Source: Pristiophorus japonicus
Taxonomy: Eukaryota
DNA length: 64,000 nt
Assembly (NCBI RefSeq): GCF_044704955.1
Contig: NC_091985.1
Location: 215,326,001-215,390,000, forward strand
Reading direction: 5' to 3'
Part shown: positions 5,401 through 57,330 of the stretch, piece by piece
Layout of the letters: each line of letters starts with the position of its first letter
Numbering within the stretch: position 1 is the stretch's first letter
Notes under the pieces: model-generated
Told to the model about the DNA's origin: nothing
The model's database searches: none
What the model saw: only the letters and a program-made list of their open reading frames with translations
Translations under genes and position numbers: made by a program

Positions 5401-7350
5401 AGGGGTAGGCCATTTAGGACTGAGATGAGTAGAAACTTCTTCATTCAGAGAGTTGTTAACCTATGTAATTCCCTGCCGCAGTGAGTTGTTGATGCCAGTT
5501 CATTGGATATATTCAAGAGGGAGTTAGATATGGCCCTTACGGCTAAGGGGATCAAGGGGTATGGAGAGAAAGCAGGAAAGGGGTACTGAAGGAATAATCA
5601 GCCATGATCTTATTGAATGGCGGTGGAGGCTCGAAGGGCCGAATGGCCTACTCCTACATCTATTTTCTATGTTTCTATGTTACCTTTCCTTAAGTTCAGG
5701 ACCTTCATCTCTGAATTAACTGTGTCACTCTCTATCTTAATAAAGAATTCTACCATATTATGATCACACTTTCCCAAGCGGCCTCGCACATCAAGATTGC
5801 TAATTAGTCCTTTCTCATTACACATCACCCAGTATAGGATGGCCAGCCCTCTAGTTGGTTCCTCGACATATTGGTCTAGAGAACCATCCCTAATACACTC
5901 CAGGAAATCCTCCTCCACCGTATTGCTACCAGTTTAGTTTGCCCAAGCTATATGTAGATTAAAGTCGCCCATGATAACTGCTGTACCTTTTTTTGCACGC
6001 ATCCCTAATTTCTTGTTTAATGCTGGCCCCAACCTTACTTCTACTGTTTGCTGGTCTGTACACAACTCCCACTAGCGTTTTCTGTCCTTTGCTATTCCGC
6101 AGCTCCACCCATACAGATTCTACATCATCCAAGCTAATGTCTTTCCTTACTATTGCGTTAACTTCCTCTTTACCAGCAAAGCTATCCCACCACCTTTTCC
6201 TTTCTGTCTATCCTTCCTAAATGTTGAATACCCCTGGATGTTGAGTTCCCAGCCATGGTCACCCTGGAGCCATGTCTCCGTGATGCCAAATATATCATAT
6301 TCATTAATTTCTGCCTGTGCAGTTAATTCATCCTCCTTATTATGAATACTCCTCGCATTGAGGCACAGATCCTTCAAGCTTGTCTTTTTAAACACACTTT
6401 GCCCCTTTAGAATTTTGCTGTAATGTGGCCCTTTTTGATTTTTGCCTTGGGTTTCTCTGCCCTCCACTTTTACTTTTCTTCTTTCTATCTTTTGCTTCTG
6501 CCCCCATTCTACTTCCCTCTATCTCCCTGCATAGGTTCCCATCCCCCTGCCATATTAGTTTAACCCCTCCCCAACAGCACTAGCAAACACTCCCCCAAGG
6601 ACATTGGTTCTGATCTTGCCCAGGTGCAGACCATCCTGTTTGTAATGGTCCCACCTCCCCCAGAACCGGTTCCAATGTCCCAGGAATTTGAATCCCTCCC
6701 TTCTGCACCACTCCTCAAGCCACATACTCATCTTCGCTATCCTGCGATTCCTCCTCTGACTAGCATGTGGCACTGGTAGCAATCCTGAGATTACTACCTT
6801 TGAGGTCCTACTTTTTAAATTTAACTCCTAGCTCCTTCACCTTGTAGGACCTCATCCCGCTTTTTACCTGTATCGTTGGTACCTATATGCACCACGACAA
6901 CTGGCTGTTCACCCTCCCCCTCCAAAATGTCCTGCAACCGCTCCGAGACATCCTTGACCCTTGCACCAGGGAGGCAACATTCCATCCTGGAGTCTCGATT
7001 GCGGCCGCAGAAACGTCTATCTATTCCCCTTACAATAGAATCACCTCCCACTATAGCTCTCCCACTCTTTTTCCTGCCCTCCTGTGCAGCAGAGCCACCC
7101 ACGGTGCCTTGGACTTGGCTGCTGCTGCCCTCCCTGGATGAGTCGCCCCCCCAACAGTACCCAAAACGGTGTATCTGTTTTGGAGGGGGATGACCGCAGG
7201 GGACCCCAGCACTACCTTCCTTCCGCTGCTCTTCCTGTTGGTCTACCATTCCCTATCTGTCTGTGTCACCTTTACCTGCAGTAAGACCAACTCACTAAAC
7301 GTGCTATTCACGGCATCCTCAGCATCATGGATGCTCCAGAGTGAATCCAG
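2470..7350 (-). mobile_element. Near full-length degenerate CR1 LINE, interrupted by a nested CR1
   Basis: ORF1 SGNH-esterase motifs (GDS, HIGTND, DGLHL) at 6555-7250. ORF2 fragments: APE endonuclease (LNARSI, GITETWL) and RT (QGSVLGP, FADD). TTTCTATGTTTCTA tail at 2470. Confidence 0.92.
4611..5678 (+). mobile_element. 5'-truncated CR1 nested in the opposite orientation inside the previous CR1
   Basis: 277-aa RT/C-terminal ORF 4651-5484 and a CR1 tail. GTTA flanks both sides (4607-4610, 5679-5682) and the host sequence rejoins cleanly. Confidence 0.92.
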
Positions 7351-8200
7351 GTGATGCTAGATCAATTGTTAAATCTGAGATTGATAATTTATTTTTTTAA
7401 AACCATCATGGGATATGAACCAAAGATGGGTGTGCAGTTAGGTCGCAGATCAGCCCTGATCTCATTGAATGATAGAACAGGCTTGAGGGGCTGAATAGCC
7501 TACTCCTGTCCTATGATCCTAACTAGTGATTTGTAAATGTTTAGTGTAACTTCCATTGTATTCAATGGCCCTATTTGTAAAGCCAAGTACCTCATATGCT
7601 TTCTGAACTGCCTTACCAACTTGTCGTTGCACTTTCAACGATTTGTGAATATGCACCCTCAGGTCCCTCTGTCTTGAACCCCCTCAAAATATTGCCAGTT
7701 AGATTATACTGTTATCCATGTTGTTTCTCCAAAAGTGCATCACTTCACACTTATCCGCATTTTATTGCATCTGCCATGTGTCTGACCATTTCACCATTCT
7801 GTCTATGTCCTCCTGACGTCTGCTACTATCATGCTCACGATTTACAATGTTGCCAAGTTTTGTTTCATCCGTAAACTTCAAAATTGTACACCCAAACCCA
7901 AGTCCAGGTCATTTATATATCACAGATAGATAGATTTTTAACCAATAAGGGAATTAAGGGTTACGGGGACCGGCCGCATAAGTGGAGCTGAGTCCACGGC
8001 CAGATCAGCCATGATCTTATTGAATGGCGGAGCAGGCTCGAGGGGCTAGATGGCCTACTCCTCTTCCTAATTCTTATGTTCTTATAACAAGAAAAGCGAT
8101 GGTGCTAATACGAACCCCTGGGAACCCCACCACATACTTCCCTCCAGTCAGAAACATATCCATTCAGCCTCCTATGCATTAGCCAATTATATACTCAAAT
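7351..8200. mobile_element. Mosaic of short CR1 3' ends (+) and older CR1 RT fragments (-)
   Basis: Two GGCTCGAGGGGCTGAATGGCCTACTCC-type tails at about 7480 and 8035, within degenerate RT sequence. Confidence 0.7.
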
Positions 8201-8451
8201 TACCAGCATCCAGGCCCAGCGGGAGATCGAGAGCCAGCGGCAGTTGGTGAGAGGCGGGAGCGGCCTATAAAAGGCGTGCTTGTGCAGCTACAGCGGGAGA
8301 GAAAGCAAAATAGAAGTAGAAAGGAATCAAAAGGTGACGTCACAGCCAATGGGGTAAGTGATTGGTGAGTAGCTTTTCTTTTTATTTTTTATATCAGTAA
8401 GTGAACAGTAACATTGTTATTACCAATTTAAGGGTATCTAAGGGTTAAGTC

Positions 8452-9418
8452 ATGGCAGGAGAGATCGGTCACGTGATATGCTCCTCCTGTACCATGTGGG
8501 AACTCAGGGACACTTCCGGTGTCCCTGACGACCACGTGTGAGAGAAGTGTGGCCGCCTCGAGCTCCTGACGGTCCGCGTTGTGGAATTGGAGCTGAGGGT
8601 GGATTCACTCTGGAGCATCCACGATGCTGAGAATGACGTGAGTATCACGTGTAGTGAGTTGGTCTTATCGCAGGAGAAGGGTCCACAGCCAGATAGAGAA
8701 TGGAAGACCAGCAGGAAGAGCACTGCAAGGAAGGTAGTGCAGGGGTCCCCTGTGGTCATCCCCCTGCAAAACAGATACACCGCTTTGAGTACTGTTGGGG
8801 GGGGGGGGGGGGGGGGGGAGATGACTCATCAGGGGAGGGCAGCAGCAGCCAAGTTCATGGCACCGTGGCTGCCTCTGCTGCACAGGAGGGCAGGAAAAAG
8901 AGTGGGAGCGCGATAGTGATAGGGGATTCAATGGTGAGGGGAATAGATAGGCGTTTCTGCGGCCGCAACCGAGACTCCAGGATGGTATGTTGCCTCCCTG
9001 GTGCAAGGGTCAAGGATGTCACGGAGCGGGTGCAGGACATTCTGAAATGGGAGGGAGAACAGCCAGTTGTCGTGGTGCACATTGGTACCAACGACATAGG
9101 TAAAAAAAAGGGATGAGGTCCTACGAAATGAATTTAAGGAGCTAGGAGCTAAATTAAAAAGTAGGACCTCAAAAGTAGTAATCTCGGGATTGCTACCAGT
9201 GCCACGTGCTAGTCAGAGTAGGAATCGCAGGATAGCACAGATGAATACATGGCTTGAGCAGTGGTGCAGCAGGGAGGGATTCAAATTCCTGGGGCATTGG
9301 AACCGGTTCTGGGGGAGGTGGGACAAGTACAAACCGGACAGTCTGCACCTGGGCAGGACCGGAACCAATGTCCTAGGGGGAAGTGTTTGCTAGTGCTGTT
9401 GGGGAGGAGTTAAACTAA
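8452..9418 (+). pseudogene. CR1 ORF1 (Cys-rich zinc-binding motif, coiled coil, SGNH esterase), frameshifted
   Basis: MAGEIGHVICSSCTMWE...CEKC, then GDS, HIGTND, DSLHL and a GEELN* end. Frame breaks fall at or near G/A homopolymers. Confidence 0.85.
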
Positions 9419-9655
9419 TATGGCAGGGGGATGGGAACCAATGCAGGGAGACAAAAGCAAAAGACAGAAAGGAGATGAGGAAAAGTGGAGGGCAGAGAAA
9501 CCCAAGGCAAAGAACAAAAAGGGCCACTGTACAGCAAAATTCTAAAAGGACAAAGGGTGTTAAAAAAACAAGCCTGAAGGCTTTGTGTCTTAATGCAAGG
9601 AGTATCCGCAATAAGGTGGATGAATTAACTGCAAATAGATGTTAACAAATATGAT

Positions 9656-12380
9656 GTGATTGGAATTGCGGAGACGTGGCTCCGGGATGGTCAGGGCTGG
9701 GAACTCAACATCCAGGGGTATTCAACATTCAGGAAGGATAGAATAAAAGGAAAAGGAGGTGGGGTAGCATTGCTGGTTAAAGAGGAGATTAATGCAATAG
9801 TTAGGAAAGATATTAGCTTGGATGATGTGGAATCTATATGGGTAGAGCTGCAGAACACCAAAGGGCAAAAAACGTTAGTGGGAGTTGTGTACAGACCTCC
9901 AAACAGTAGTAGTGATGTTGGGGAGGGCATCAAACAGGAAATTAGGGGTGCATGCAATAAAGGTGCAGCAGTTATAATGGGTGACTTTAATATGCACATA
10001 GATTGGGCTAGCCAAACTGGAAGCAATACGGTGGAGGAGGATTTCCTGGAGTGCATAAGGGATGGTTTTCTAGACCAATATGTCGAGGAACCAACTAGGG
10101 GGGAGGCCATCTTAGACTGGGTGTTGTGTAATGAGAAAGGACTAATTAGCAATCTCATTGTGCGAGGCCCCTTGGGGAAGAGTGACCATAATATGGTGGA
10201 ATTCTGCATTGGGATGAAGAATGATACAGTTAATTCAGAAACCATGGTCCAGAACTTAAAGAAGGGTAACTTTGAAGGTATGAGGCGTGAATTGGCTAGG
10301 ATAGATTGGCGAATGATACTTAAGGGGTTGACTGTGGATGGGCAATGGCAGACATTTAGAGACCGCATGGATGAATTACAACAATTGTACATTCCTGTCT
10401 GGCGTAAAAATAAAAAAGGGAAAGTGGCTCAACTGTGGCTATCTAGGGAAATCAGGGATAGTATTAAAGCCAAGGAAGTGGCATACAAATTGGCCAGAAA
10501 TAGCAGCGAACCTGGGGACTGGGAGAAATTTAGAACTCAGCAGAGGAGGACAAAGGGTTTGATTAGGGCAGGGAAAATGGAGTACGAGAAGAAGCTTGCA
10601 GGGAACATTAAGGCGGATTGCAAAAGTTTCTATAGGTATGTAAAGAGAAAAAGGTTAGTAAAGACAAACGTAGGTCCCCTGCAGTCAGAATCAGGGGAAG
10701 TCATAACAGGGAACAAAGAAATGGCAGACCAATTGAACAAGTACTTTAGTTCAGTATTCACTAAGGAGGACACAAACAACCTTCCGGATATAAAAGGGGT
10801 CGGAGGGTCTAATAAGGAGGAGGAACTGAGGGAAATCTTTATTAGTCGGGAAATTGTGTTGGGGAAATTGATGGGATTGAAGGCCGATAAATCCCCAGGG
10901 CCTGATGGACTGCATCCCAGAGTACTTAAGGAGGTGACCTTGGAAATAGCGGATGCATTGAGAGTCATTTTCCAACATTCCATTGACTCTAGATCAGTTC
11001 CTATCGAGTGGAGGATAGCCAATGTAACCCCACTTTTTAAAAAAGGAGGGAGAGAGAAAACAGGGAATTATCGACCGGTCAGCCTGACCTCAGTAGTGGG
11101 TAAAATGATGGAATCAATTATTCAGGATGTCATAGCAGCGCATTTGGAAAATGGTGACATGATAGGTCCAAGTCAGCATGGATTTGTGAAAGGGAAATTA
11201 TGCTTGACAAATCTTCTGGAATTTTTTTGAGGATGTTTCCAGTAAAGTGGACAAAGGAGAACCAGTTGATGTGGTATATTTGGACTTTCAGAAGGCTTTC
11301 GACAAGGTCCCACACAAGAGATTAATGTGCAAAGTTAAAGCACATGGGATTGGGGGTAGTGTGCTGACATGGATTGAGAACTGGTTGTCAGACAGGAAGC
11401 AAAGAGTAGGAGTAAATGGGTACTTTTCAGAATGGCAGGCAGTGACTAGTGGGGTACCGCAAGGTTCTGTGCTGGGGCCCCAGCTGTTTACGTTGTACAT
11501 TAATGATTTAGACGAGGAGATTAAATGTAGTATCTCCAAATTTGCGGATGACACTAAGTTGGGTGGCAGTGTGAGCTGCGAGGAGGATGCTATGAGGCTA
11601 CAGAGTGACTTGGATAGGTTAGGTGAGTGGGCAAATGCATGGCAGATGAAGTATAATGTGGATAAATGTGAGGTTATCCACTTTGGTGGTAAAAACAGAG
11701 AGACAGACTATTATCTGAATGGTGACAGATTAGGAAAAGGGAAGGTGCAACGAGACCTGGGTGTCATGGTACATCAGTCATTGAAGGTTGGCATGCAGGT
11801 ACAGCAAGCGGTTAAGAAAGCAAATGGCATGTTGGCCTTCATAGCGAGGGGATTTGAGTACAGGGGCAGGGAGGTGTTGCTACAGTTGTACAGGGCATTG
11901 GTGAGGCCACACCTGGAGTATTGTGTACAGTTTTGGTCTCCTAACTTGAGGAAGGACATTCTTGCTATTGAGGGAGTGCAGCGAAGATTCACCAGACTGA
12001 TTCCCGGGATGGTGGGACTGACCTATCAAGAAAGACTGGATCAACTGGGCTTGTATTCACTGGAGTTCAGAAGAATGAGAGGGGACCTCATAGAAACGTT
12101 TAAAATTCTGACGGGTTTAGACAGGTTCGATGCAGGAAGGATGTTCCCAATGTTGGGGAAGTCCAGAACCAGGGGTCACAGTCTAAGGATAAGGGGTAAG
12201 CCATTTAGGACCGAGATGAGGAGAAACTTCTTCACCCAGAGAGTGGTGAACCTGTGGAATTCTCTACCACAGAAAGTAGTTGAGGCCAATTCACTAAATA
12301 TATTCAAAAAGGAGTTAGATGAAGTCCTTACTACTCGGGGGATCAAGGGGTATGGCGAGAAAGCAGGAAGGGGGTACTGA
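9656..12380 (+). pseudogene. CR1 ORF2 endonuclease/reverse transcriptase, split by a frameshift at a T-run (about 11222)
   Basis: ORFs of 524 aa (ETWL, GDFN, SDH) and 377 aa (LDFQKAFD, QGSVLGP, FADD). Confidence 0.9.
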
Positions 12381-12470
12381 AATTTCATGTTCAGCCATGA
12401 ACTCATTGAATGGCGGTGCAGGCTAGAAGGGCTGAATGGCCTGCTGCTGCACCTATTTTCTATGTTTCTA

Positions 12471-14220: not shown

Positions 14221-14760
14221 CTTTCCTCCTTATGAGAATATGCTTGGTTTGTACCCGGTGTCAAATTTTGTTTAATAATGCTCCCGTGAAGCACGTTGGG
14301 ACGTTTAAGATACTGTATAAATACAAGTTGTTGTTGTCTGAACTGACAATACATTGCGCAGAAGTAAAATATAGTATTTTTAGTCCTAAATATTAAATAT
14401 TTTGTTCCACAGAAGCATGGGACGTGTATGTTTTTATTCATGAATTTAAAAAGTCTATATTAAAATCTGAGCCGGTGGGTTGTGAGCCCAAGAGCCTTGT
14501 GTCCAATAAGGACAATAAATGCCCCCAGCCTCCCCTGGCCCAGATGGTCGCCGGGGTGGCAGCTCCCGGGGGAGCTCCTCTGCTGAATAACTTTATCCCT
14601 TGCCGTCTGTTGCCATCCGACACCCTTTCTCCCCCAATCTCCCCGCTTTAAGCTCTCCCTGGCCCCAATAGGGGGCACATTTCTTACCGCTTAAGCACAA
14701 ATCCATGCTGCAAGGGCAGTTACCTGAGCACACTGCCCATCCCCCAAACATGCCTGTTCT

Positions 14761-15925
14761 TCACCTCCATCAGTGAGTGCGGGATCTCCACCTCCATCAG
14801 TGAGTGCGGGATCTCCACCTCCATCAGTGAGTGCGGGATCTCCACCTCCATCAGTGAGTGCAGGATCTCCACCTCCATCAGTGAGTGCAGGATCTCCACC
14901 TCCATCAGTGAGTGCGGGATCTCCACCTCCATCAGTGAGTGCGGGATCTCCACCTCCATCAGTGAGTGCGGGATCTCCACCTCCATCAGTGAGTGCGGGA
15001 TCTCCACCTCCATCAGTGAGTGCAGGATCTCCACCTCCATCAGTGAGTGCGGGATCTCCACCTCCATCAGTGAGTGCGGGATCTCCACCTCCATCAGTGA
15101 GTGCGGGATCTCCACCTCCATCAGTGAGTGCGGGATCTCCACCTCCATCAGTGAGTGCGGGATCTCCACCTCCATCAGTGAGTGCGGGATCTCCACCTCC
15201 ATCAGTGAGTGCGGGATCTCCACCTCCATCAGTGAGTGCAGGATCTCCACCTCCATCAGTGAGTGCAGGATCTCCACCTCCATCAGTGAGTGCGGGATCT
15301 CCACCTCCATCAGTGAGTGCGGGATCCCCACCTCCATCAGTGAGTGCGGGATCCCCACCTCCATCAGTGAGTGCAGGATCTCCACCTCCATCAGTGAGTG
15401 CAGGATCTCCACCTCCATCAGTGAGTGCGGGATCTCCACCTCCATCAGTGAGTGCGGGATCTCCACCTCCATCAGTGAGTGCGGGATCCCCACCTCCATC
15501 AGTGAGTGCGGGATCCCCACCTCCATCAGTGAGTGCGGGATCTCCACCTCCATCAGTGAGTGCGGGATCTCCACCTCCATCAGTGAGTGCAGGATCTCCA
15601 CCTCCATCAGTGAGTGCAGGATCTCCACCTCCATCAGTGAGTGCGGGATCTCCACCTCCATCAGTGAGTGCGGGATCTCCACCTCCATCAGTGAGTGCAG
15701 GATCTCCACCTCCATCAGTGAGTGCAGGATCCCCACCTCCATCAGTGAGTGCAGGATCCCCACCTCCATCAGTGAGTGCAGGATCCCCACCTCCATCAGT
15801 GAGTGCGGGATCACCACCTCCATCAGTGAGTGCAGGATCTCCACCTCCATCAGTGAGTGCGGGATCCCCACCTCCATCAGTGAGTGCGGGATCCCCACCT
15901 CCATCAGTGAGTGCAGGATCTCCAC
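14761..15925. repeat. 27-bp minisatellite CACCTCCATCAGTGAGTGCRGGATCYC, about 43 copies
   Basis: Directly visible near-perfect tandem array with two variable positions. Confidence 0.97.
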
Positions 15926-16760
15926 TCAAACCCATCTTTAACCCGCCGCACTTTCCCGCTGCCCAGCCCGTGCTCCCCCGCCAGTTGTGGCCGGCCCAGC
16001 GACTCCTCGCGGACACCATCAGCGTCCGGGGTGCTCCCGCCCAACTCACAGCGGACCACTGCACTGCTCCAGGCGGCCCCCGGGATCTCAGCGGCCGGCG
16101 GTGAGCCTTTGACCAACTGCCAAAGCTGCTTTGGGCCGAGCTCCCGCGCAAGGCCTTCCTCCGGCCGCATCCTGACCAACGGACGGCCCAACTCGCGCCC
16201 TGCGGCTCAGCCAATCAGCGGCGCAAGTCCCGCCCCTCGGGCTCCCCGATTGGCTGGAGGTCCCGCCGCCGGCTCGTCCTCCAGCCCCGACCTGCTCGCT
16301 CCCAATTGGACGAAAGCTCCTCCAGCCCCGCCCTACTCGCTTCCCCCATTGGTCGGAAGCTCCCGTCAATCAGGCTGTGGGAGCGGGTCACATTTCCCTT
16401 GAGCGCGCTCCGCCAAACTGACCAAGCACAGCGCGGGGCCCGGATGGACGGACTCAGGTTTGGATTTCCCTTTATTCGCTCCCTATCCCCCCTCCCTCCC
16501 CCCGCTCGATTCTCTACCCAATCCGAGCGGAGAAAACTCACTGCGCGTCACCGATCGCTGCTCTGTCACGGACACAAACGCCTTTCCCCGGAAGGCTCAG
16601 CGTCGAGTCCGTACCACAGCATCCAAGCAGCACCGAGTGGGGATGGGGCGGGTGGTGTTTTCTGGGCATGCGCGGTTATTACCGAGGGTGACCGAGAGGG
16701 GACGTTGTGGCGAACACGGTGCCGCGTGCGCATGCGCGGCTGCTGGTGAGACCTGTGACA
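15926..16760. promoter_or_regulatory. CpG-island promoter, possibly bidirectional
   Basis: Very GC/CpG-rich. Multiple CCAAT/ATTGG boxes (about 16211, 16249, 16303, 16348, 16519), CCGCCC GC boxes, and an NRF1-like GCGCATGCGC at about 16728. Confidence 0.7.
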
Positions 16761-22292: not shown

Positions 22293-24605
22293 ACATAGAA
22301 AATAGATGCAGGAGTAGGCCATTCGGCCCTTTGAGCCTGCACCACCATTCAATATAATCATGGCTGATCATGCAACTTCAGTACCCCATTCCTGCTTTCT
22401 CTCCATACCCCTTGATCCCTTTAGACGTAAGGGCCACATCTAACTCCCTTTAGAATATATCGAACGAACTGGCCTCAACAATTTTCTGTGGTAGAGAATT
22501 CCACAGGTTCGCAATTCTCTGAGTGAAGAAGTTTCTTCTCATCTCGGTCTAAATGGCTTACCCCTTATCCTTAGACTGTGACCCCTGGTTCTGTGCATCT
22601 CCAACATCGGGAACATTCTTCCTGCATCTAACCTGTCCAATCCCGTCAGAATTGTATATGTTTCTGTGAGATCCCATCTCATTCTTCTAAATTCCAGTGA
22701 ATATAAACCTAGTCGACCCAGCCTTTCTTCATATGTCAGCCCTGTCATCCCAGGAATCAGTGTGGTGAACCTTCGCTGCACTCCCTCAATAGCAAGAATG
22801 TCCTTCCTCAGATTAGGAGACCAAAACTGGACACAATATTCAAGGTGTGGCCTCACCAACATCCTGTACAACTGCAGTAAGACCTCCTGCTCCTATACTC
22901 AAATCCTCTCGCTATAAAGGCCAACATGCCATTTGCTTTCTTAACCGCCTGCTGTACCTGCATGCCAACATTCAATGACTGATGTACTATGACACCTAGG
23001 TCTCATTGCACCTCCCCTTTTCCTAATCTGTCACCATTCAGATAATATTCTGCCTTCCTGTTTTTGCCACCAAAGTGGATAACCTCACATTTATCTACAT
23101 TATACTGCATCTGCCATGCATTTGTCCACTCACCTAACCTGTCCAGGTTACCCTGCAGCCTCTTAGCATCCTCCTCACAGCTCACACTGCCACCTAGTTT
23201 AGTGTCATCTGCAAACTTGGAGATATTACACTCCATTCCTTCGTCTAAATCATTGATGTATATTGTAAGTAGCTGGGGTCCCAGCACTGAACCTTGCGGT
23301 ACCCCACTAGTCAGTGCCTGCCATTCTGAAAAGGACCCATTTACTCATACTCTTTGCTTCCTGTCTGCCAACCAGTTCTCAATCCACATCAGCACATTAC
23401 TCCCAATCCCATATGCTTTAACTTTGCACATTAATCTCTTGTGTGGGACCTTGTCGAAAGCCGTCTGAAAGTCCAAATACACATCAACTGGTTCTCCCTT
23501 GACCACTCTACTGGAAACATCCTCAAAAAATTCCAGCAGATTTGTCAAGCATGATTTCCCTTTCACAATTCCATGCTGACTTGGACCTATCATGTCACCT
23601 CTTTCCAAATGCGCTGCTATGACATCCTTAATAATTGATTCCATCATTTTACCCACTACCGATGTCAGGCTGACCGGTCTATAATTCCCTGTTCTCTCTC
23701 TCCCTCCTTTTTAAAAAAGTGGGGTTATATTGGCTACCCTCCACTCCATAGGAACTGATCCAGAGTCAATGAAATGTTGGAAAATGACTGTCAATGCATC
23801 CGCTATTTCCAAGGCCACCTTCTTAAGTACTCTGGGATGCAGTCCATCAGGCCCTGGGGATTTATCGGCCTTCAATCCCATCAATTTCCCCAACACAATT
23901 TCCCGACTAATAAAGATTTCCCTCAGTTCCTCCTTACTAGACCCTCTGACCCCTTTTATATCCGGAAAGTTGTTTGTGTCCTCTTTAGTGAATACCAAAC
24001 CAAAGTACTTGTTCAATTGGTCTGCCATTTCTTTGTTCCCCATTATAACTTCCCCTGATTCTGACTGCAGGGGACCTATGTTTGTCTTTACTAACCTTTT
24101 TCTCTTTACATATCTGTAGAAGCTTTTGCAGTCCGTCTTAATGTTCCTTGCAAGCTTCCTCTCGTACTCTATTTTCCCTGCCCTAATCAAACCCTTTGTC
24201 CTCCTCTGCTGAGTTCTAAATTTCTCCCAGTCCCCGGGTTCGCTGCTATTTCTGGCCAATTTGTATGCCACTTCCTTGGCTTTAATACTATCCCTGATTT
24301 CCCTTGATAGCCACGGTTGAGCCATCTTCCCTTTTTTATTTTTACTCCAGACAGGGATGTACAATTGTTGTAGTTCATCTATGCGGTCTCTAAATTTCTG
24401 CCATTGTCCATCCACTGTCAACCCCTTAAGTATCATTCGCCAATCTATCCTAGCCAATTCACGCCTCATACCTTCAAAGTTACCCTTCTTTCAGTTCTGG
24501 ACCATGGTTTCTGAATTAACTGTTTCATTCTCCATCCTAATGTAGAATTCCACCATATTATGGTCACTCTTCCCCAAGGGGCCTTGCACAACGAGATTAC
24601 TAATT
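22293..24605 (-). mobile_element. 5'-truncated CR1 LINE, frameshifted
   Basis: Consecutive ORF2 fragments 22539-24469 and a CR1 tail at 22293. Confidence 0.92.
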
Positions 24606-31307: not shown

Positions 31308-34143
31308 AGTGCAAATAGATGTTAACAAATATGATGTGATTGGGATTACGGAGATGTGGCTCCAGGATTATCAGGGCTGGGAACTCAACATCCAGGGGTA
31401 GTCAACATTCAGGAAAGATAGAATAAAAGGAAAAGGAGGTGGGGTAGCATTGCTGGCTAAGGAGGAAATTAAGGCAATAGTTCAGAAGGACATTAGCTTG
31501 GATGATGTGGAATCTATATGGGTAGAGCTGCAGAATACCAAAGGGCAAAAAACGTTAGTGGGAGTTGTGTACAGACCTCCAAACAGTAGTAGTGATGTTT
31601 GGGAGGGCATCAAACATGAAATTAGGGGTGCGTGCAATAAAGGTGCAGCAGTTATAATGGGTGACTTTAATATGCACATAGATTGGGTTAACCAAACTGG
31701 AAGCAATACGGTGGAGGAGGATTTCCTGGAGTGCATAAGGGATGGATTTTTAGACCAATATGTCGAGGAACCAACTAGGGGGGAGGCCATCTTAGACTGG
31801 GTGTTGTGTAATGAGAGAGGATTAATTAGCAATCTCGTGTGAGACCCCTTGGGGAAGAGTGACCATAATATGGTGGAATTCTGCATTAGGATGGAGAATG
31901 AAACAGTTAATTCAGAGACCATGGTCCAGAACTTAAAGAAGGGTAACTTTGAAGGTATGAGGCGTGAATTGGCTAGGATAGATTGGCGAATGATACTGAA
32001 GGGGTTGACTGTGGATGGGCAATGGCAGACATTTAGAGACCGCATGGATGAACTACAACAATTGTACATTCCTGTCTGGCGTAAAAATAAAAAAGGGAAG
32101 GTGGCTCAACCGTGGCTATCAAGGGAAATCAGGGATAGTATTAAAGCCAAGGAAGTGGCATACAAATTGGCCAGAAATAGCAGCGAACCCGGGGACTGGG
32201 AGAAATTTAGAACTCAGCAGAGGAGGACAAAGGGTTTGATTAGGGCAGGGAAAATGGAGTACGAGAAGAAGCTTGCAGGGAACATTAAGACGGATTACAA
32301 AAGTTTCTATAGATATGTAAAGAGAAAAAGGTTAGTAAAGACAAACGTAGGTCCCCTGCAGTCAGAATCAGGGGAAGTCATAACGGGGAACAAAGAAATG
32401 GCGGACCAATTGAACAAGTACTTTGGTTCGGTATTCACTGAGGAGGACACAAACAACCTTCCGGATATAAAAGGGGTCGGAGGGTCTAGAAAGGAGGAGG
32501 AACTGAGGGAAATCCTTATTAGTCAGGAAATTGTTTGGGGAAATTGATGGGATTGAAGACCGATAAATCCCCAGGGTCTGATGGCCTGCATCCCAGAGTA
32601 CTTAAGGAGGTGGCCTTGGAAATAGTGGATGCATTGACAGTCATTTTCCAACATTCCATTGACTCTGGATCAGTTCCTATGGAGTGGAGGGTAGCCAATG
32701 TAACCCCACTTTTTAAAAAAAGGAGGGAGAGAGATAACACGGAATTATAGACCAGTCAGCCTGACATCGGTAGTGGGTAAAATGATGGAATCAATTATTA
32801 AGGATGTCTTAGCAGTGCATTTGGAAAGAGGTGACATGATAGGTCCAAGTCAGCATGGATTTGTGAAAGAGAAATCATGCTTGACAAATCTTCTGGAATT
32901 TTTTGAGGATGTTTCCAGTAGAGTGGACAAGGGAGAACCAGTTGATGTGGTATATTTGGACTTTCAGAAGGTTTTCGACAAGGTCCCACACAAGAGATTA
33001 ATGTGCAAAGTTAAAGCATGGGATTGGGGGTAGTGTGCTGACATGGATTGAGAACTGGTTGTCAGACAGGAAGCAAAGAGTACGAGTAAATGGGGACTTT
33101 TCAGAATGGCAGGCAGTGACTAGTGGGGTACCGCAAGGTTCTGTGCTGGGGCCCCAGCTGTTACACTGTACATTAATGATTTAGACGATGGGATTAAATG
33201 TAGTATCTCCAAATTTGCGGATGACACTAAGTTGGGTGGCAGTGTGAGCTGCGAGGAGGATGCTATGAGGCTGCAGAGCGACTTGGATAGGTTAGGTGAG
33301 TGGGCAAATGCATGGCAGATGAAGTATAATGTGGATAACTGTGAGGTTATCCACTTTGGTGGTAAAAACAGAGAGACAGACTATTATCTGAATGGTGACA
33401 GATTAGGAAAAGGGGAGGTGCAACGAGACCTGGGTGTCATGGTACATCAGTCATTGAAGGTTGGCATGCAGGTACAGCAGGCGGTTAAGAAAGCAAATAG
33501 CATGTTGGCCTTCATAGCGAGGGGATTTGAGTACAGGGGCAGGGAGGTGTTGCTACAGTTGTACAGGGCCTTGGTGAGGCCACACCTGGAGTATTGTGTA
33601 CAGTTGTGGTCTCCTAACTTGAGGAAGGACATTCTTGCTATTGAGGGAGTGCAGCGAAGGTTCACCAGACTGATTCCCGGGATGGCGGGACTGACCCATC
33701 AAGAAAGACTGGATCAACTGGGCTTGTATTCACTGGAGTTCAGAAGAATGAGAGGGGACTTCATAGAAACGTTTAAAATTCTGACGGGGTTAGACAGGTT
33801 AGATGCAGGAAGAATGTTCCCAATGTTGGGGAAGTCCAGAACCAGGGGACACAGTCTAAGGATAAGGGGTAAGCCATTTAGGACCGAGATGAGGAGGAAT
33901 TTCTTCACCCAGAGAGTGGTGAACCTGTGGAATTCTCTACCACAGAAAGTTGTTGAGGCCAATTCACTAAATATATTCAAAAAGGAGTTAGATGAAGTCC
34001 TTACTACTAGGGGAATCAAGAGGTATGGTGAGAAAGAAGGAATGGGGTACTGAAGTTGCATGTTCAGCCATGAACTCATTGAATGGCGGTGCAGGCTAGA
34101 AGGGCCGAATGGCCTACTCCTGCACCTATTTTCTATGTTTCTA
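31308..34143 (+). mobile_element. 5'-truncated young CR1 with frameshifts
   Basis: ORF2 fragments 31450-34053, nearly identical to the 9.6-12.4 kb copy, and a CR1 tail. Confidence 0.95.
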
Positions 34144-34144
34144 A

Positions 34145-35124
34145 GAGACTGTCAATTACATAATGAATCTCACACTCACACACATCACTAGTCTAACAGA
34201 TACATAATCAATCTCACACTCTCAAACAGTAACAGAAACTGACAGTTACAGAATGAACCCCATACCCACAAACAGTGCCAGGGACTGAGAGACACAGAAT
34301 GGACCCCACACCCACAAACAGTGCTAGAGACTGAGACACACATAATGATACATACACTCGGGTACAGTGAATGACAGATTGCGATTGAATCACAATCACA
34401 TATGGTAACAGACTGACTGACTGGCAGATCTAGGTTAAAATCCACACACACCTATTGGAAAGTGACTGGTGCAGAGTAAAATGGATATTCACATAACTTT
34501 TATTCTGAATCCTTCAGCTTTTGTTAACACATCCTGTAAACCAATAGATACAGAATAAAATGTACACTTGCATCCCAGAGTCAGACAGCTATAAAGTAAA
34601 ACACACACTCACATACCAGAGACTGGAAGATATGACTAATATCCACACTCCGGTACAAGAAACTGGCAGGTACTGATTAAAATACACAATCACATCCTGG
34701 AAACTAACGGTTGGAGTGTAACAACAAGACAAATACCAGAAATTGACAGGTAAAGATTAAAACCAAACTCACATTCCAAAAACTGACAGATACAGAGTAA
34801 AGCCCACACTCTCACCATAGAGTGACACATACAGTCTATGACACACTCACACATAAGAAAATGACAGCTACAGAGTCAAACCCACATTCACATCCCAGAG
34901 AGTGACAGCTACAGAGCAAAATCAACAGCCACATAAAAGATACTGATCGATGCAGAGTCAAACAAACACACGCTCACGTACCACAACCTAACAGGTACAG
35001 ATTAAAACAGACTCACATATCAGAAACTGACAGATACAGCACAAAAGCAGCACTATCACAGCAGATACTGACAGGTACAGATTAAAACCCCTATTCATAT
35101 ACTAGAAACTAACAGGTACAAAAT
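34145..35124. repeat. Diverged 41-bp tandem array
   Basis: Same consensus as the 28.6 kb array. Confidence 0.8.
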
Positions 35125-37556
35125 AGGATTTCCTGGAATGCATAAGGGATGGTTTTCTAGACCAATATGTCGAGGAACCAACTAGGGGGGAGGCCATCTT
35201 AGACTGGGTGTTGTGTAATGAGAGAGGATTAATTAGCAATCTCATTGTGCGAGGCCCCTTGGGGAAGAGTGACCATAATATGGTGGAATTCTGCATTAGG
35301 ATGGAGAATGAAACAGTTAATTCAGAGACCATGGTCCAGAACTTAAAGAAGGGTAACTTTGAAGGTATGAGGCATGAATTGGCTAAGATAGATTGGCTAA
35401 TGATACTTAAGGGGTTGACTGTGGATGGGCAATGGCAGACATTTAGAGAACGCATGGATGAATTACAACAATTGTACATTCCTGTCTGGCGTAAAAATAA
35501 AAAAGGGAAGGTGGCTCAACCGTGGCTATCTAGGGAAATCAGGGATAGTATTAAAGCCAAGGAAGTGGCATACAAATTGGCCAGAAATAGCAGTGAACCT
35601 GGGGACTGGGAGAAATTTAGAACTCAGCAGAGGAGGACAAAGGGTTTGATTAGGGTAGGGAAAATGGAGTACGAGAAGAAGCTTGCAGGGAACATTAAGG
35701 CGGATTGCAAAAGTTTCTATAGGTATGTAAAGAGAAAGAGGTTAGTAAAGACAAACGTAGGTCCCCTGCAGTCAGAATCAGGGGAAGTCATAACGGGGAA
35801 CAAAGAAATGGCAGACCAATTGAACAAGTACTTTGGTTCAGTATTCACTAAGGAGGACACAAACAACCTTCCGGATATAAAAGTGGTCAGAGGGTCTATT
35901 AAGGAGGAGGAACTGAGGGAAATCTTTATTAGTCGGGAAATTGTGTTGGGGAAATTGATGGGATTGAGGGCCGATAAATCCCCAGGGCCTGATGGACTGC
36001 ATCCCAGAGTACTTAAGGAGGTGGCCTTGGAAATAGCGGACGCATTGACAGTCATTTTCCAACATTCCATTGACTCTGGATCAGTTCCTATCGAGTGGAG
36101 GGTAGCCAATGTAACCCCACTTTTTAAAAAAGGAGGGAGAGAGAAAGCAGGGAATTATAGACCGGTCAGCCTGACCTCAGTAGTGGGTAAAATGATGGAA
36201 TCAATTATTAAGGATGTCATAGCAGCGCATTTGGAAAATGGTGACATGATAGGTCCAAGTCAGCATGGATTTGTAAAAGGGAGATCATGCTTGACAAATC
36301 TTCTGGAATTTTTTGAGGATGTTTCCAATAAAGTGGACAAAGGAGTACCAGTTGATGTGGTATATTTGGACTTTCAGAAGGCTTTCGACAAGGTCCCACA
36401 CAGGAGATTAATGTGCAAAGTTAAAGCACATGGGATTGGGGGTAGTGTGCTGACGTGGATTGAGAACTGGTTGTCAGACAGGAAGCAAAGAGTAGGAGTA
36501 AATGGGTACTTTTCGGAATGGCAGGCAGTGACTAGTGGGGTACCGCAGGGTTCTGTGCTGGGGCCCCAGCTGTTTACATTGTACATTAATGATTTAGACG
36601 AGGGGATTAAATGTAGTATCTCCAAATTTGCGGATGACACTAAGTTGGGTGGCAGTGTGAGCTGCGAGGAGGATGCTATGAGGCTACAGAGTGACTTGGA
36701 TAGGTTAGGTGAGTGGGCAAATGCGTGGCAGATGAAGTATAATGTGGATAAATGTGAGGTTATCCACTTTGGTGGTAAAAACAGAGAGACAGACTATTAT
36801 CTGAATGGTGACAGATTAGGAAAAGGGAAGGTGCAACGAGACCTGGGTGTCATGGTACATCAGTCATTGAAGGTTGGCATGCAGGTACAGCAGGCGGTTA
36901 AGAAAGCAAATGGCATGTTGGCCTTCATAGCGAGGGGATTTGAGTACAGGGGCAGGGAGGTGTTGCTACAGTTGTACAGGGCCTTGGTGAGGCCACACCT
37001 GGAGTATTGTGTACAGTTTTGGTCTCCTAACTTGAGGAAGGACATACTTGCTGTTGAGGGAGTGCAGCGAAGATTCACCAGACTGATTCCCGGGATGGTG
37101 GGACTGACCTATCAAGAAAGACTGAATCAACTGGGCTTGTATTCACTGGAGTTCAGAAGAGTGAGAGGGGACCTCATAGAAACGTTTAAAATTCTGACGG
37201 GTTTGGACAGGTTGGATGCAGGAAGAATGTTCCCAATGTTGGGGAAGTCCAGAACCAGGGGTCACAGTCTAAGAATAAGGGGTAAGCCATTTAGGACCGA
37301 GATAAGGAGAAACTTCTTCACCCAGAGAGTGGTGAACCTGTGGAATTCTCTACCACAGGAAGTAGTTGAGGCCAATTCACTAAATATATTCAAAAGGGAG
37401 TTAGATGAAGTCCTTACTACTCGGGGGATCAAGGGGTATGGCGTGAAAGCAGGAAGTGGGTACTGAAGTTTCATGTTCAGCCATGAACTCGTTGAATGGC
37501 GATGCAGGCTAGAAGGGCTGAATGGCCTGCTCCTGCACCTATTTTCTATGTTTCTA
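35125..37556 (+). mobile_element. 5'-truncated young CR1 inserted in the 41-bp array
   Basis: Uninterrupted 752-aa ORF2 portion (35208-37466) with a complete RT domain; starts within the endonuclease domain. Confidence 0.95.
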
Positions 37557-41264: not shown

Positions 41265-42173
<909 letters not shown>

Positions 42174-43107: not shown

Positions 43108-43412
<305 letters not shown>

Positions 43413-44948: not shown

Positions 44949-45329
44949 TTACATCCATGTTACAGCAGTGACAGATAAGAAAGGTGTTGAATTAAACGAT
45001 GGGAGGAAGGCAGCATCAGGGCAGAAGGACAGTGAGGGTCCCTTGCCCTCATAGAAGGACTCCCAAGTCCTGATCAGAAGTGACCCTCAGGAAATCTCGG
45101 TTACAAACCGGTCAATGTCTCGAACATGTAGAAATGTAGATCGACAAACACAGCTGTTCAGATTATTGAATGTATATATAGAAAAAAACGTGAATGAACC
45201 TTCCTCATAAGTCCGGCCGTCATTAACCATTTTTGCCTGAGAGCAGAATAGAAACAAAAACGGAATATAAATCGGGAGGGGATGTCATTGATGACTTAAT
45301 TTAAGAATTTGAGATTGTGGCAAACAATA

Positions 45330-45480
45330 AATCTGATTGGATGTTTAAAGATACCAATCAGAGAGATACAGAACAATGGAAATTGACAACGCAGCCAATG
45401 AACCAATCACAGTCATTGCCTTCACCCATCCCTCATTAGCATAAGGTTGTGGGCGGAGTGTGGGGCTACCTACATAATGC
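45330..45480 (+). promoter_or_regulatory. H2B-type promoter upstream of the interrupted H2B
   Basis: CCAAT boxes, octamer-like CTCATTAGCATA, GGGCGG and a weakened TATA (TACATAA). Paralogous to 49285-49435. Confidence 0.75.
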
Positions 45481-45547
45481 GAGCCCGGAGCAAAATTTCT
45501 TTCATATCTACCCGACTGAACAAGACGATGCCTGAGGAAAAGAAACC

Positions 45548-45900
45548 CGCTTCTCGGCCTTTTGGCTAAGATCATGCGTAACTGACCTGACAGGGGAGTA
45601 ACCACCATAACCCCAAGGTGGTTCTCCCTGGATCAGGAAGGTATATGCTTGCTTTTTTGGAAATAGGAGGTGGGTGGGGTGGTTTGACCCATCCACCTCC
45701 ACGGAGGTGTGTGGGGGACCTGACCTATACACCTCCATGGCACGAACCTGGTATTGCAGTACTTCCAGGAACGGTGCAGTGGCTCTAGGCCTTTTGGCTA
45801 AGAGCATTGGCGCAGAGTGATCCTTGAATGGGCCCAAGGTGACCTCTGGCGTTTGTGATTTGACAAAGAATTGGAACGATTGGCTACGAATTTTAAAAAA
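45548..45900 (+). mobile_element. U2/U1 snRNA-derived chimeric retroposon, unit 1
   Basis: U2 5' end CGCTTCTCGGCCTTTTGGCTAAGATCA (45548-45574). U1-like ACTGACCTGACAGGGGAG...AAGGTGGTTCTCCC (45581-45628). U2 3' stem-loop IV ACCTGGTATTGCAGTACTTCCAGGAACGGTGCA (45746-45778). A-tail. Confidence 0.85.
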
Positions 45901-45909
45901 AAGAAACCA

Positions 45910-46221
45910 GCTTCTCGGTTTTTTGGCCAAGATCATGCGTAACTGACCTGACAGGGGAATAACCATGACCAGAAAGTGGTTCTCCCTGGATCAGGAAGGT
46001 GGTTCTCCTATGCTTTTTGGAAATAGGAGGTGGGTGTGGGGCTTGACCCATCCACCTCCATGGCACGAACCTGATATTGCAGTACTTCCAGGAACGGTGC
46101 TTGGGCTCGAGGCCTTTTGGCTAAGAGCATTGGCGCAGAGTGATCCTTGATGGGTGCAAGGTGACCTCTGGCGTTTATGATCTCACAAAGAATTGGAAAG
46201 ATTGGCAACGAATAATAAAAA
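45910..46221 (+). mobile_element. U2/U1 snRNA-derived chimeric retroposon, unit 2
   Basis: Same order of modules as unit 1 but diverged: U1-like 45942-45986, U2 SL-IV 46069-46100, A-rich tail. Confidence 0.85.
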
Positions 46222-47551
46222 AAGAAACCAGCTTCGAAAAAGGGTGCCAAAAAAGTCATCAAAAAAACATCACCAAAGGGCGGCAAGAAGCGCCGAAATT
46301 CGAGGAAGGAGAGTTATGCTATCTACATCTACAAAGTGATGAAGCAGGTTCACCCCGACACCGGCATCTCCTCCAAGGCCATGGGCATCATGAACTCGTT
46401 TGTGAATAATATTTTCGAGCGCATTGCGGGTGAGGCTTCCCGCCTGGCCCATTACAACAAGCGTCGCGCCATCAGTTCCCGGGAGATCCAGACCGCCGTG
46501 CGCCTGCTGCTGCCCGGGGAGCTGACCAAGCACGCCGTGTCGGAAGGGTCAAAGGCGGTGACCAAGTACACCAGCTCCAAGTAAAACTCCACGCTGTCCT
46601 GACAGAACAAACCCCAAACACAACGGCTCTTTTAAGAGCCACCCACAACATAATTGAAAGAGCTGCACAAACATCACCCTTTAGACTGAATTTACTGTAA
46701 TTATTTCCTGAACAAGTGTGTGTGAGAACCTTTGTAGTTCCAGCTGTAGATTTAGTTTTGAATTCTCATAAGTAGCTTCACTGACCGGCTTGACCTTGGC
46801 GTCACTGGAATTTCCTGTAGTGAGTAAACTACAAACACGGTCCCTGGTCGCTTTCCCTTTGTTCTCAGACCCGTTCATTCACAGCGCCTGCCGACGAATT
46901 TATTTTGGGGGGCGGGGAAACTCCGATTTCAGTCACATTCTCAATCAAGTCCTTTTCACGAGTTTTTTTTATTCCGTTGCGCTCAGTCCGTTTATTAACC
47001 CGAGACTCCCCGCAGTGTAACAACCCAGAATGGGAGTTCTTAGAGATTGGAACAGGGGCAGTTTGAACACCCTGTCCCTCTTCTCTTTTTACAGAAGGAC
47101 TCTCAGTTCTGGTCTCACTCCCACAGCAGCTCCTGTGAAAACAAGTTCACTTTTACGAAGATGGAGCTGGAATGTGTCCCGTTACAGAATCAGTGGGGAC
47201 TGAGTCCCGCCCGTTACAGACAGTTTGAAGCTGAAGCCGAATTTAATCCTAATTGTTACAGGCTGGAATTTGCAAGGGAAATATGGAATAAGACAAAAGG
47301 AAACAAAAAGTGTTTTGAAGTATTTGGCTAATGGTGAAGTTACTAACTCAATCCGCAATTTTCACAATTATTGGCGGGATTTTTGAATTTAAAAAATCGT
47401 TAGGTTCTGGCTGTTGGGAAACCAGTAATTTCCGCCCTCCTTTCATTGGTGGACTAGACAGGCTGTGATTGGTCATCGGAAACGGCCAATGAAATCCACG
47501 ACAGAGTGACCAATCACAAGTTCGCTCCCTGCATCCCTCCAGAAGGGATAA

Positions 47552-47970
<419 letters not shown>

Positions 47971-48402: not shown

Positions 48403-48492
48403 TACACTGAGCAGCCAAGCGCAAGACGGTCACTGCCATGGATGTGGTGTGCACTCTGAAACGGCAGGGCCGCACTTTCTATGGATTCAACG
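48403..48492 (+). pseudogene. Histone H4 3' fragment
   Basis: [25 protein letters not shown]; degraded stem-loop at about 48522-48537. Confidence 0.88.
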
Positions 48493-48664
48493 GGACTCTC
48501 TTCCCCCAAGCACAAAGCAAAGGCTCTTCTAAGTCCCACCCACCGCCTCACGGGGGGAGGGAGGGAGATATAGTTCATTTACATTTTGTTCGGTATCGAT
48601 AGATATTTTAAATCAGCATATGCACGATGGACGGAATATCCTTTTAGTTTCAGAATTATAGATA

Positions 48665-48960: not shown

Positions 48961-49284
48961 CCCTTTACGGCACAGAAGGTACGGCATATTCCAGGTGAAG
49001 GTAACACTGAAACAACTAATGTAGTTACAGCAGTGAAAGATAAGAAAGGTGTTGAATTAAACGGTGGGAGGAAGGCAGCATCAGGGAGGAAGGACATTGA
49101 GGGTCTTTTGACCTCATAGACTTCCAAGTCCTGACCAGAAGTGGCCCTCAGGCAATCTCGGTTACAAACCGGTCAATGTCTGTCAAACATGTAGAAATCT
49201 AGATCGATAAAGAACAGAGTATAAGTCGGGAGGGGATGTAACTGATGACCTAATTGAAGAATTTGAGATTGTGGCGAGCAGTAA

Positions 49285-49435
49285 ATCTGATTGGTCTCTT
49301 TAAACATCCAATCAGAGAATTACAGAACAATAGAAATTGACAACGCAGTGAGTGAACCAATCACAATTGTTGCCTTCACCCATCCCTCATTAGCATAGGG
49401 CTGTGGGCGGAGTGTGGGGCTGCCTATATAATGCG
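49285..49435 (+). promoter_or_regulatory. H2B promoter
   Basis: CCAAT boxes, octamer-like CTCATTAGCATA, GGGCGG and TATATAA. Confidence 0.8.
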
Positions 49436-49483
49436 AGCTCCGAGCTAAGTTTACGTCATGTCTGGGTTGGATTGAACAAGACG

Positions 49484-49861
49484 ATGCCTGAAGAGAAGAA
49501 ATCAGTTACTGCCAAGAAAGGCGCCAAGAAAGTGATCAAGAAAACACCACCAAAGGGCGGTAAGAAGCGCAGGAAGTCGAGGAAGGAGAGTTACTCCATC
49601 TACATCTACAAAGTGATGAAGCAGGTTCACCCCGACACCGGCATCTCCTCCAAGGCCATGGGCATCATGAACTCTTTTGTGAACGATATTTTCGAGCGCA
49701 TCGCAGGTGAGGCTTCCCGCCTGGCCCATTACAACAAGCGCCGCACCATCAGCTCCCGGGAGATCCAGACCGCCGTGCGTCTGCTGCTACCCGGGGAGCT
49801 GGCCAAGCACGCCGTATCGGAAGGGACAAAGGCGGTGACCAAGTACACTAGCTCCAAGTAA
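49484..49861 (+). CDS. H2B: Histone H2B (125 aa), replication-dependent
   Basis: [16 protein letters not shown]...[26 protein letters not shown]...TKYTSSK; intronless. Confidence 0.97.
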
Positions 49862-49901
49862 AACTCCACGTTGTCCTCACACAACAATCCCTAAACACAA
49901 C

Positions 49902-49917
49902 GGCTCTTTTAAGAGCC
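49902..49917 (+). terminator. Histone 3' stem-loop (H2B)
   Basis: GGCTCTTTTAAGAGCC-ACCCA followed by a purine-rich GAAAGAG downstream element. Confidence 0.95.
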
Positions 49918-50810
49918 ACCCACAACGTCTCTGAAAGAGCTGCACAAACACATCACCCTTTAAACTCAATTTACTGTATTTATTTCCTGAGCAAGTGTGT
50001 TTGACAGCATTTAAAATTCCAGCTGTAGATTTAGATTTGAATTATCAGATAAGCGGTTTTACTGTCCGGTTCAACCTTAGCTTCTCTGATGAATTTTCCT
50101 CCCAGTAAACTGCACACACTGTCCCTGGTCGCTTGCCAATGAATTATGATCTTGTTTTAGGAGGTGAAACTCAGACTTTAGTCACCTCATTCTCTCTCAA
50201 ACCCTTTACAATATAAAAAAAATTCTAGTTCGGGTCAACCCGCTTATTAATCCGAGATTCCGAGTGCAACAGCCCAGACTGGGAGTTCTTACAGAGACCA
50301 GAACAGGGAGTTTGAACCCTCTGTCCCTCTTTTCACAGAAGAACTCCCAGTTCTGGTCTCACTGCCGCCTGTGCGGATGATCGATCCATGATCTGTGATT
50401 CCCAAATTGTACAAAGATTGTGCTGGAATGTGTCCCGTTACAGAACGTTTGAAACTGAACGCGAATTTAATCCTGATTGTAACATCCTGGAATTTGGAAG
50501 GCAATAAAGAATACGGCAAAAGGAAATAAAAAGTGTTTGGAAATCTTTGGCTAATGTTGAATTTATTAACATAATCCGCATTGTAAAAATTATTGGCGGG
50601 GTTTTTGAAATTGAAGATTCGTTGGCAGTCGAACAGTAATTTTCGCCCTGTTTACATTGGCGGGCTAAACAGACGGTGATTGGTCAGCGGAAAAGACCAA
50701 TGAAATCCACTTCAGAGCGACCAATCACAAGTTCGCTCCCTGCATCCCTCCAGAATGTATAAGAAGGGCAGATGTGGGAGGAGTTTCTCATTCTTTGTCT
50801 GAACTTGTGA

Positions 50811-52317: not shown

Positions 52318-52737
<420 letters not shown>

Positions 52738-56717: not shown

Positions 56718-57330
56718 ATAGAAACATAGAAAATAGGTGCAGGAGTAGGCCATTCGGCCCTTCAAGTTTGCACCACCATTCAATATGATCATGGCTGATC
56801 ATGCAACTTCAGTACCCCATTCCTGCTTTCTCTCCATACCCCTTGATCCCTTTCGCCGTAAGGGCCATATCTAACTCCCTTTTGAATATATCTAACGAAC
56901 TGGCCTCAACAAATTTCTGTGGTAGAAAATTCCACAGGCTCACAATTCTCTGAGTGAAGAAGTTTCTTCTCATCTCGGTCCTAAATGGCTTACCCCTTAT
57001 TCTTAAACCGTGACCCCCGGTTCTGGACATCCCCACCATCGGGAACATTCTTCCTGCATCTAACCTGTGCAATCCCGTCAGAATGTTATATGTTTCTATG
57101 AGATCCCCTCTCATTCTTCTAAATTCCAGTGAATATAAACCTAGTCTATCCAGTCTTTCTTCATATGACAGTCCTGCCATCCTGGAATCAATCTGGTGAA
57201 CCTTCGCTGCACTCCCTCAATAGCAAGAATGTCCTTCCTCAGATTAGGAGACCAAAACTGTACACAATATTCAAGGTGTGACCTCACCAAGGCCCTGTAC
57301 AACTGCAGTAAGACCTCCCTGCTCCTATAG
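56718..57330 (-). mobile_element. 5'-truncated CR1
   Basis: ORF2 C-terminus 56809-57180 and a tail. Confidence 0.9.

Follow-up and report, generated by a model that had tools for sequence, protein, structure and literature searches.

R2 non-LTR retrotransposons are autonomous, have a conserved target site and free themselves by means of a ribozyme. Their transcription is shared with 28S rDNA (PMC4494074, in the sections used here). They insert in the sense orientation into a multicopy transcribed gene and have no promoter of their own, and in both respects they are resembled by the element found in a histone H2B gene of the shark Pristiophorus japonicus. A second likeness is with the snRNA-derived SINEU, which the consulted part of a 2017 review names from crocodilians only (PMC5381603). 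As described in the same sections of the defining paper (PMC4494074), SINEU-1, -2 and -3 have serial U1/U2 heads, partial internal duplications, a unique 3′ tail and poly(A), are shorter than 500 bp, contain internal oligo-T and lack an internal promoter. All of these traits are found in the shark element, as are U2 pieces of about 32–35 nt from the 5′ end and about 83–88 nt from the 3′ end, and its tandem copies sandwich a 16-bp duplication, as do those of SINEU-3. The differences lie in the host, since those sections report no SINEU outside crocodilians, in the site, which is a histone gene here and a Mariner-N4 transposon there, and in the order of modules, which is absent from the description given in those sections (the comparison is with the description only). 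On its anatomy, with family size, partner and homology left aside, the element would be termed SINEU-like rather than a member of SINEU, and the match in anatomy suggests an insertion of the Tx1/L1 type.

Two LINEs that target U2 genes, Keno (of the Tx1 clade) and Utopia, insert after U2 nt 38 (PMC4640811, in the part used here), and Kojima groups Tx1-Mar, the partner of SINEU, with Keno. These are autonomous elements residing in U2 genes, whereas the shark element contains pieces of U2 and lies in H2B. Use of a Pol II promoter of the host by a non-autonomous retroposon is known from the SVA subfamily under the MAST2 promoter (PMC4494074). MAST2 sequence is present at the 5′ end of this subfamily, whereas no H2B leader lies between the shark copies.

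A SINEU-like element in a shark is new. The literature surveyed, mostly without subscription papers, yielded no histone-targeting Tx1 and no shark SINE derived from snRNA; Repbase may list Tx1 families with histone-gene targets. Transcription of SINEU from flanking sequence, together with the comparison to R2, was proposed by Kojima in 2015 (PMC4494074), so that the flank-driven mechanism is not new as an idea, and the mode of SINEU transcription is treated as an open question in the sections of that paper used here. Whether through descent or convergence, the shark element takes the class outside crocodilians, and, with its copies lying behind a well-defined promoter, it offers a place where the flank-driven model can be tested.

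The interrupted H2B gene and its histone cluster

The window (the whole 64-kb stretch of P. japonicus DNA analysed) contains a histone cluster at about 42–55.6 kb, lying among RT-bearing repeats. The features of the H2B locus and its neighbours, all on the plus strand, are:

45326..45478, plus strand: H2B promoter, with its boxes located and compared with the intact paralogue
45528..45553, plus strand: H2B start, codons M-P-E-E-K-K-P-A, ATG at 45528–45530
45538..45553, plus strand: target-site duplication 1, one base off the other two at a synonymous Pro position
45554..45898, plus strand: element copy 1 (345 nt), delimited by Rfam matches and alignment of the copies
45899..45914, plus strand: target-site duplication 2, between the element copies
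45915..46219, plus strand: element copy 2 (305 nt), delimited in the same way
46220..46235, plus strand: target-site duplication 3, with an AG at 46230–46231 usable as splice acceptor
46222..46584, plus strand: remainder of H2B, open from K-K-P-A-S to the stop, five residue changes relative to P0006
46620..46665, plus strand: histone 3′ stem-loop region, Rfam Histone3 at 38.4 bits, above threshold
47547..47970, plus strand: H2A of the same repeat unit, with a changed TATA box and a 25-bp frameshifting deletion
49280..49942, plus strand: intact H2B paralogue (control), TATATAA at 49425, CDS 49484–49861

Read on into the element, the H2B frame meets a stop at 45567; it resumes at the third target duplication, and the stem-loop follows after its own stop codon. 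The original prediction had a sense-oriented element only about 20 bp past the H2B ATG, and this is where it lies: it starts on the plus strand 18–23 bp past the ATG, at 45549 with the 5 nt that it shares with the target duplication and at 45554 without them. The CCAAT/octamer/GC promoter predicted upstream was likewise located in full, with an inverted CCAAT at 45336, CCAAT at 45354, 45395 and 45403, ATTAGCAT at 45435, GGGCGG at 45451 and TACATAA at 45471. The octamer is the variant ATTAGCAT in both H2B paralogues; the canonical octamer, ATTTGCAT, is absent from both promoters. The TATA box is weakened, as had been noted (TACATAA at 45471 vs TATATAA at 49425), and the two promoters differ by 17 substitutions in 152 aligned bases. 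An inverted repeat of about 31 bp (45332–45362 here), made up of the inverted CCAAT and a direct one, is present in both of them. Between TATA box and ATG (45479–45527 vs 49433–49483) the paralogues differ at 13 of 49 bases, compared with 62 of 578 in pooled flanking segments (p = 0.004), and their first codons are likewise more divergent, which may reflect either a class difference or a conversion tract. The intact paralogue is of another N-terminal class and lacks the 16-bp target.

The repeat unit that holds the interrupted H2B is decaying: its neighbouring H2A is broken both in the promoter, where GATAAGAA stands in place of the TATA box TATAAGAA, and in the reading frame. Other broken histone genes are found at 43108–43409, 48414–48494 and 52318–52730 (a frameshifted H4, an H4 3′ fragment and an H3 without a start codon at the usual place). 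A third H2B is present as a 3′ fragment only, its last 38 codons at 42057–42170 with the 5′ part missing, directly 3′ of a short degenerate repeat array (region 41300–42170). The H2A and H1 proteins of the window have no exact match in the protein collection searched, so the window may not be the annotated haplotype.

Anatomy of the snRNA-derived element

The two copies are in tandem and both on the plus strand, like H2B; the window contains no further copy. Their general plan runs from the U2 5′ end to about nt 35, through about 50 nt of the U1 5′ end and a short linker, to the U2 3′ half. Another short U2 5′ piece comes next, and a unique tail of about 90 nt leads to the closing A-run. In copy 1 the U2 head extends to about 45580 and is followed by the U1 piece (about 45581–45631), the U2 3′ half (about 45650–45777, containing an internal duplication of about 37 bp), the second U2 5′ piece (45784–45807), the unique tail and the A-run (45895–45902). 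In copy 2 the head ends at 45941, and the U1 piece (45942–45989), a linker repeating the U1 piece, the U2 3′ half (about 46013–46100), the second U2 5′ piece (46111–46127) and the unique tail follow, closing with AATAAA (46214–46219) and an A-run of seven A (46217–46223). The A-run of copy 1, of eight A, continues into the target duplication, and this copy has no AATAAA; each of the two runs includes four A of a target duplication. With their A-run ends, and the AATAAA of copy 2, the copies look as if their template had been polyadenylated at its own end.

Rfam matches to U2 cover 45546–45784 (53.7 bits) and 45907–46107 (56.4 bits), both on the plus strand, against a gathering score of 46. The U1 pieces are aligned over the first stem and fall below the gathering score (21 bits vs 69.5, E 0.004–0.006). 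Five departures at conserved Rfam positions are common to both copies (U2 positions 30 and 32, U1 positions 6 and 12, and the opening A of the Sm site) and alter branch-point pairing, 5′ splice-site pairing and the Sm site in each, suggesting that the element left the snRNA genes before its arrival in H2B. Neither copy has the features of a functional U1 or U2 snRNA gene, the motifs being altered in both and no PSE-like match being present at the expected distance upstream, with up to five mismatches allowed. A PSE-like match at 45960 was rejected: it lies inside the U1 piece and is attributable to chance (18 matches at ≤4 mismatches in the window).

Both copies are non-coding, with stops in the H2B frame and one long reverse-strand frame lacking a Pfam match. 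A tblastn comparison of 244 proteins with the insertion gave three short matches (10–32 residues), none from a shark. Compared with the consensus Pol III A and B boxes, neither copy has an exact B box or an A box followed by a B box, in agreement with the original prediction, which saw no internal A/B boxes. A-like boxes with one mismatch (45795 and 45808; 46118 and 46131) lie downstream of the B-like boxes of the same copy (45682; 46105), and runs of four to six T interrupt both copies. Unlike R2, the element is non-coding, its site is in a variable tail, and it matched no ribozyme family: none was among the nine Rfam matches to E 10 over 45500–46260, a search that a diverged ribozyme could escape.

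The unique tail (45808–45894 and 46128–46216) is predicted to form a long hairpin in both copies, with 25 predicted pairs, none of them compensatory in this comparison of two sequences. The folding z of copy 2 (−2.33) would be due to inherited snRNA stems. A likeness of the tail to pieces of U4, U6 and U1 was rejected, as Rfam gave only weak miRNA/lncRNA matches (E 4–6), and exact scans of metagenome contigs with tail patterns gave no matches in a collection that is not expected to contain shark DNA. CpGs, examined as a sign of silencing, are changed at 3 of 22 and 2 of 23 sites, which is uninformative.

Target site and the origin of the two copies

The 16-bp target encodes (E)K-K-P-A-S. Allowing up to two mismatches, and with both strands of the 64 kb searched, it occurs at three sites, all at element borders, so the arrangement is not due to chance. 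Three such targets around two elements form the pattern that was counted for sequential insertion; Kojima reads it in this way for SINEU-3, with an expected duplication of 16 bp (PMC4494074, in the sections used here). The first four bases of duplication 1 are inseparable from an A-tail and its last five are common with the U2 5′ end. Its one-base difference could be the signature of a donor paralogue or donor leader, but chance explains it, at least one change in 48 sites being expected 60% of the time at 1.9%.

Five nucleotides common to the U2 5′ end and the Ala-Ser codons of the target are used at both 5′ junctions. Runs of at least four A number four in the sense strand and one in the antisense strand of the interrupted H2B class, the sense runs all lying within 45 nt of the site, and one and two, respectively, in the intact class. 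Because the target starts with a sense-strand A-run, poly(A)-primed insertion there can give only a sense copy, and the A-runs of the lysine-rich tail account for both the proximity to the ATG and the orientation with no benefit from the promoter. The sense orientation, which the original prediction had offered in support of promoter borrowing, therefore fails to discriminate. An A-run combined with a duplication of up to 16 bp suggests an enzyme of the L1/Tx1 clade. The insertion geometry of L1 and its nick consensus TTTT/AA are described in PMC4859970 (in the part used here); the nick context here differs from that consensus, with C's 3′ of the T-run.

The distribution of the target was followed at the protein level in 20 H2B entries of P. 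japonicus and 27 of other sharks, a selected, non-exhaustive set picked by hand from match lists. K-K-P-A-S occurs in 2 of the 20 and in none of the 27, and K-P-A-S in 6 and 4, respectively; judged by these entries, the target sits in the variable tail of a minority H2B class. One annotated P. japonicus H2B (P0147), of the class that the interrupted gene matches, begins M-P-E-E-K-K-P-A-S-K-K, which is the empty-site form. The parallel with R2 that had been drawn for this locus, an analogy already present in PMC4494074 (in the sections used here), thus stands as regards sense insertion below a host promoter and breaks down over the conserved target, given the 2/20 and 0/27, with specificity for the site read from two adjacent copies.

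We favour, at about an even chance, the reading that a SINEU-like retroposon inserted twice into this H2B gene, which served as a landing site and is now a pseudogene, from source RNA made elsewhere. Such a non-autonomous retroposon would be mobilised in trans by a putative Tx1/L1-clade reverse transcriptase. In an H2B of the K-K-P-A-S class, the nuclease would nick the bottom-strand T-run that faces the lysine codons, the A-tail of the RNA would prime at the nick and so fix the sense orientation, and the end of the cDNA would join where the U2 5′ end and the Ala-Ser codons match over 5 nt. The template would be a polyadenylated Pol II RNA from a source locus elsewhere, most simply a copy in an snRNA gene under PSE/DSE control, as each of the copies stops at the 5′ end of U2; a master copy lodged in a U2 gene would give, from the PSE of that gene, transcripts with this head. 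The U2 head breaks off near U2 nt 35, a short way from the site past nt 38 that Keno and Utopia use (PMC4640811, in the part used here). The interrupted H2B itself would perhaps be read through passively and make a poor source. No source locus was seen in the window, and the missing PSE-like match at the expected distance is as expected here. Anatomy, duplications, A-runs, broken snRNA motifs and decay are read directly from the DNA; we infer the enzyme, the separateness of the two events and the source promoter.

Over 298 aligned bases the copies show 25 differences, apart from 7 gaps, which is 8.4% of sites or 4.2% per lineage, while the host H2B has changed at most at 1.9% (5 of 265 non-synonymous sites, with P0006 as reference). 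This divergence favours two insertions, non-significantly (Fisher p = 0.11 for the excess of the element copies over the host). Counting all five H2B residue changes as decay after insertion was rejected, as four of them are common to entries P0151 and P0165 and three to P0245. Against two insertions from a source elsewhere stand the number of copies, only two and adjacent to each other, and the fact that identical junctions would result from a leader-carrying RNA annealed across the 16-bp target.

The alternative that survives best, although we hold it to be rather unlikely, is a single insertion at an A-rich site without real specificity, followed by local tandem duplication and later by copying of the cluster unit. 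Unequal exchange between two target duplications would yield the same triple-duplication pattern, and the divergence test is compatible with a single insertion (p = 0.11). P0151, P0165 and P0245 carry three to four of the five odd residues of the host together with abnormal N-termini at the site, suggesting that the unit or its lineage was copied; they also have an R-R-N-S-R-K variant in common. If units were copied, several genomic H2B copies could represent one event, and a tally of orientations would be inflated. Entry P0151 cannot be built from the window with canonical splice sites; perhaps it represents a locus that has a 9-bp duplication and no insertion, and four of the H2B changes would then predate the insertion. 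The copies themselves argue against a single insertion, being 8.4% apart, with several adjacent multi-base changes and two structural differences. That distance is about twice the point estimate for two lineages at the host decay rate, and the gap widens if four of the host's five changes predate the insertion.

Possible transcription from the H2B promoter

The original prediction had the element borrow the H2B promoter. In this model, which we consider unlikely, a family targets the 5′ end of H2B and is co-transcribed from its promoter in S phase, and R2-like annealing of the flank gives the exact junctions. It accommodates the identical 5′ junctions of two copies lying at precisely one site, the lack of ordered A/B boxes and the T runs inside the element, a promoter that has kept its boxes except TATA, and a stem-loop above the Rfam threshold. 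Flank-driven transcription is also what Kojima proposes for SINEU, and SINEU-2B has 5′ extensions from its target (PMC4494074, in the sections used here). Orientation is uninformative here, as an A-rich target or any site-specific nuclease would fix it. The target is not conserved among shark H2Bs (no K-K-P-A-S in the 27 entries of the selected set), the TATA box is changed and the histone unit is decaying, and a founder copy in H2B would itself have needed transcription from another promoter. No H2B leader or coding sequence lies between the copies, although annealing over the 16-bp match could mask a leader.

The 3′ ends are at odds with the model too. The histone stem-loop had been proposed as the 3′ end of the transcript, but both copies end in an A-run of their own (7–8 nt), copy 2 with AATAAA at 46214, and the stem-loop is 422 nt beyond the end of copy 2. 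Non-polyadenylated histone mRNAs are poorly enriched with L1 ORF1p in cross-linked material, not so in uncross-linked material (PMC7874467, in the part used here).

One protein start could derive from transcripts crossing the element. Canonical splice sites allow the start of the annotated P. japonicus model P0165 (M-P-S-K-K) to be assembled by joining a start codon in one or other of the element heads to the AG of the last duplication, the sole route to it within 45480–46262. Such a fit is expected by chance about 7% of the time per 305 nt (that is, per copy), and P0246 apparently uses the same acceptor with an unrelated upstream exon. Pfam annotations show no H2B–RT fusion among the 120 entries listed of 1283 in a search for longer H2B fusions.

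In its fullest form, a shark SINEU-like family with a Tx1 partner, specialised on the 5′ site of one H2B class and replicating by read-through from the H2B promoter, the model is quite doubtful. Borrowing at other, intact H2B loci may nonetheless occur and is compatible with the data of this one window. Very improbable is a chimeric snRNA retrocopy that arose just once through template switching and was then duplicated, with no family behind it: chimeric snRNA retrocopies are known (discussed in PMC4494074, in the sections used here, where Kojima favours template switching for the addition of SINEU heads) and no further copy lies in the window, but four snRNA pieces and a unique tail with shared motif losses exceed the decay of the host gene.

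Were H2B targeting and promoter borrowing to hold genome-wide, site-specific retroelements would have a niche in histone clusters as they do in rDNA and snRNA arrays. Otherwise the locus is a dead insertion in a histone pseudogene and still a useful record of the element.

Outside the histone cluster, the window opens on the minus strand with a C2H2 zinc-finger array (1–642) that is cut by the window edge. A long tandem array with a 27-bp unit (14650–16200) opens reading frames on both strands. Many putatively CR1-like LINE fragments, with reverse transcriptase or endonuclease matches in Pfam, lie at 4600–12400, 22500–24500, 31400–37500 and 56800–57200, one of them with a frame of 728 aa at 35280–37466.
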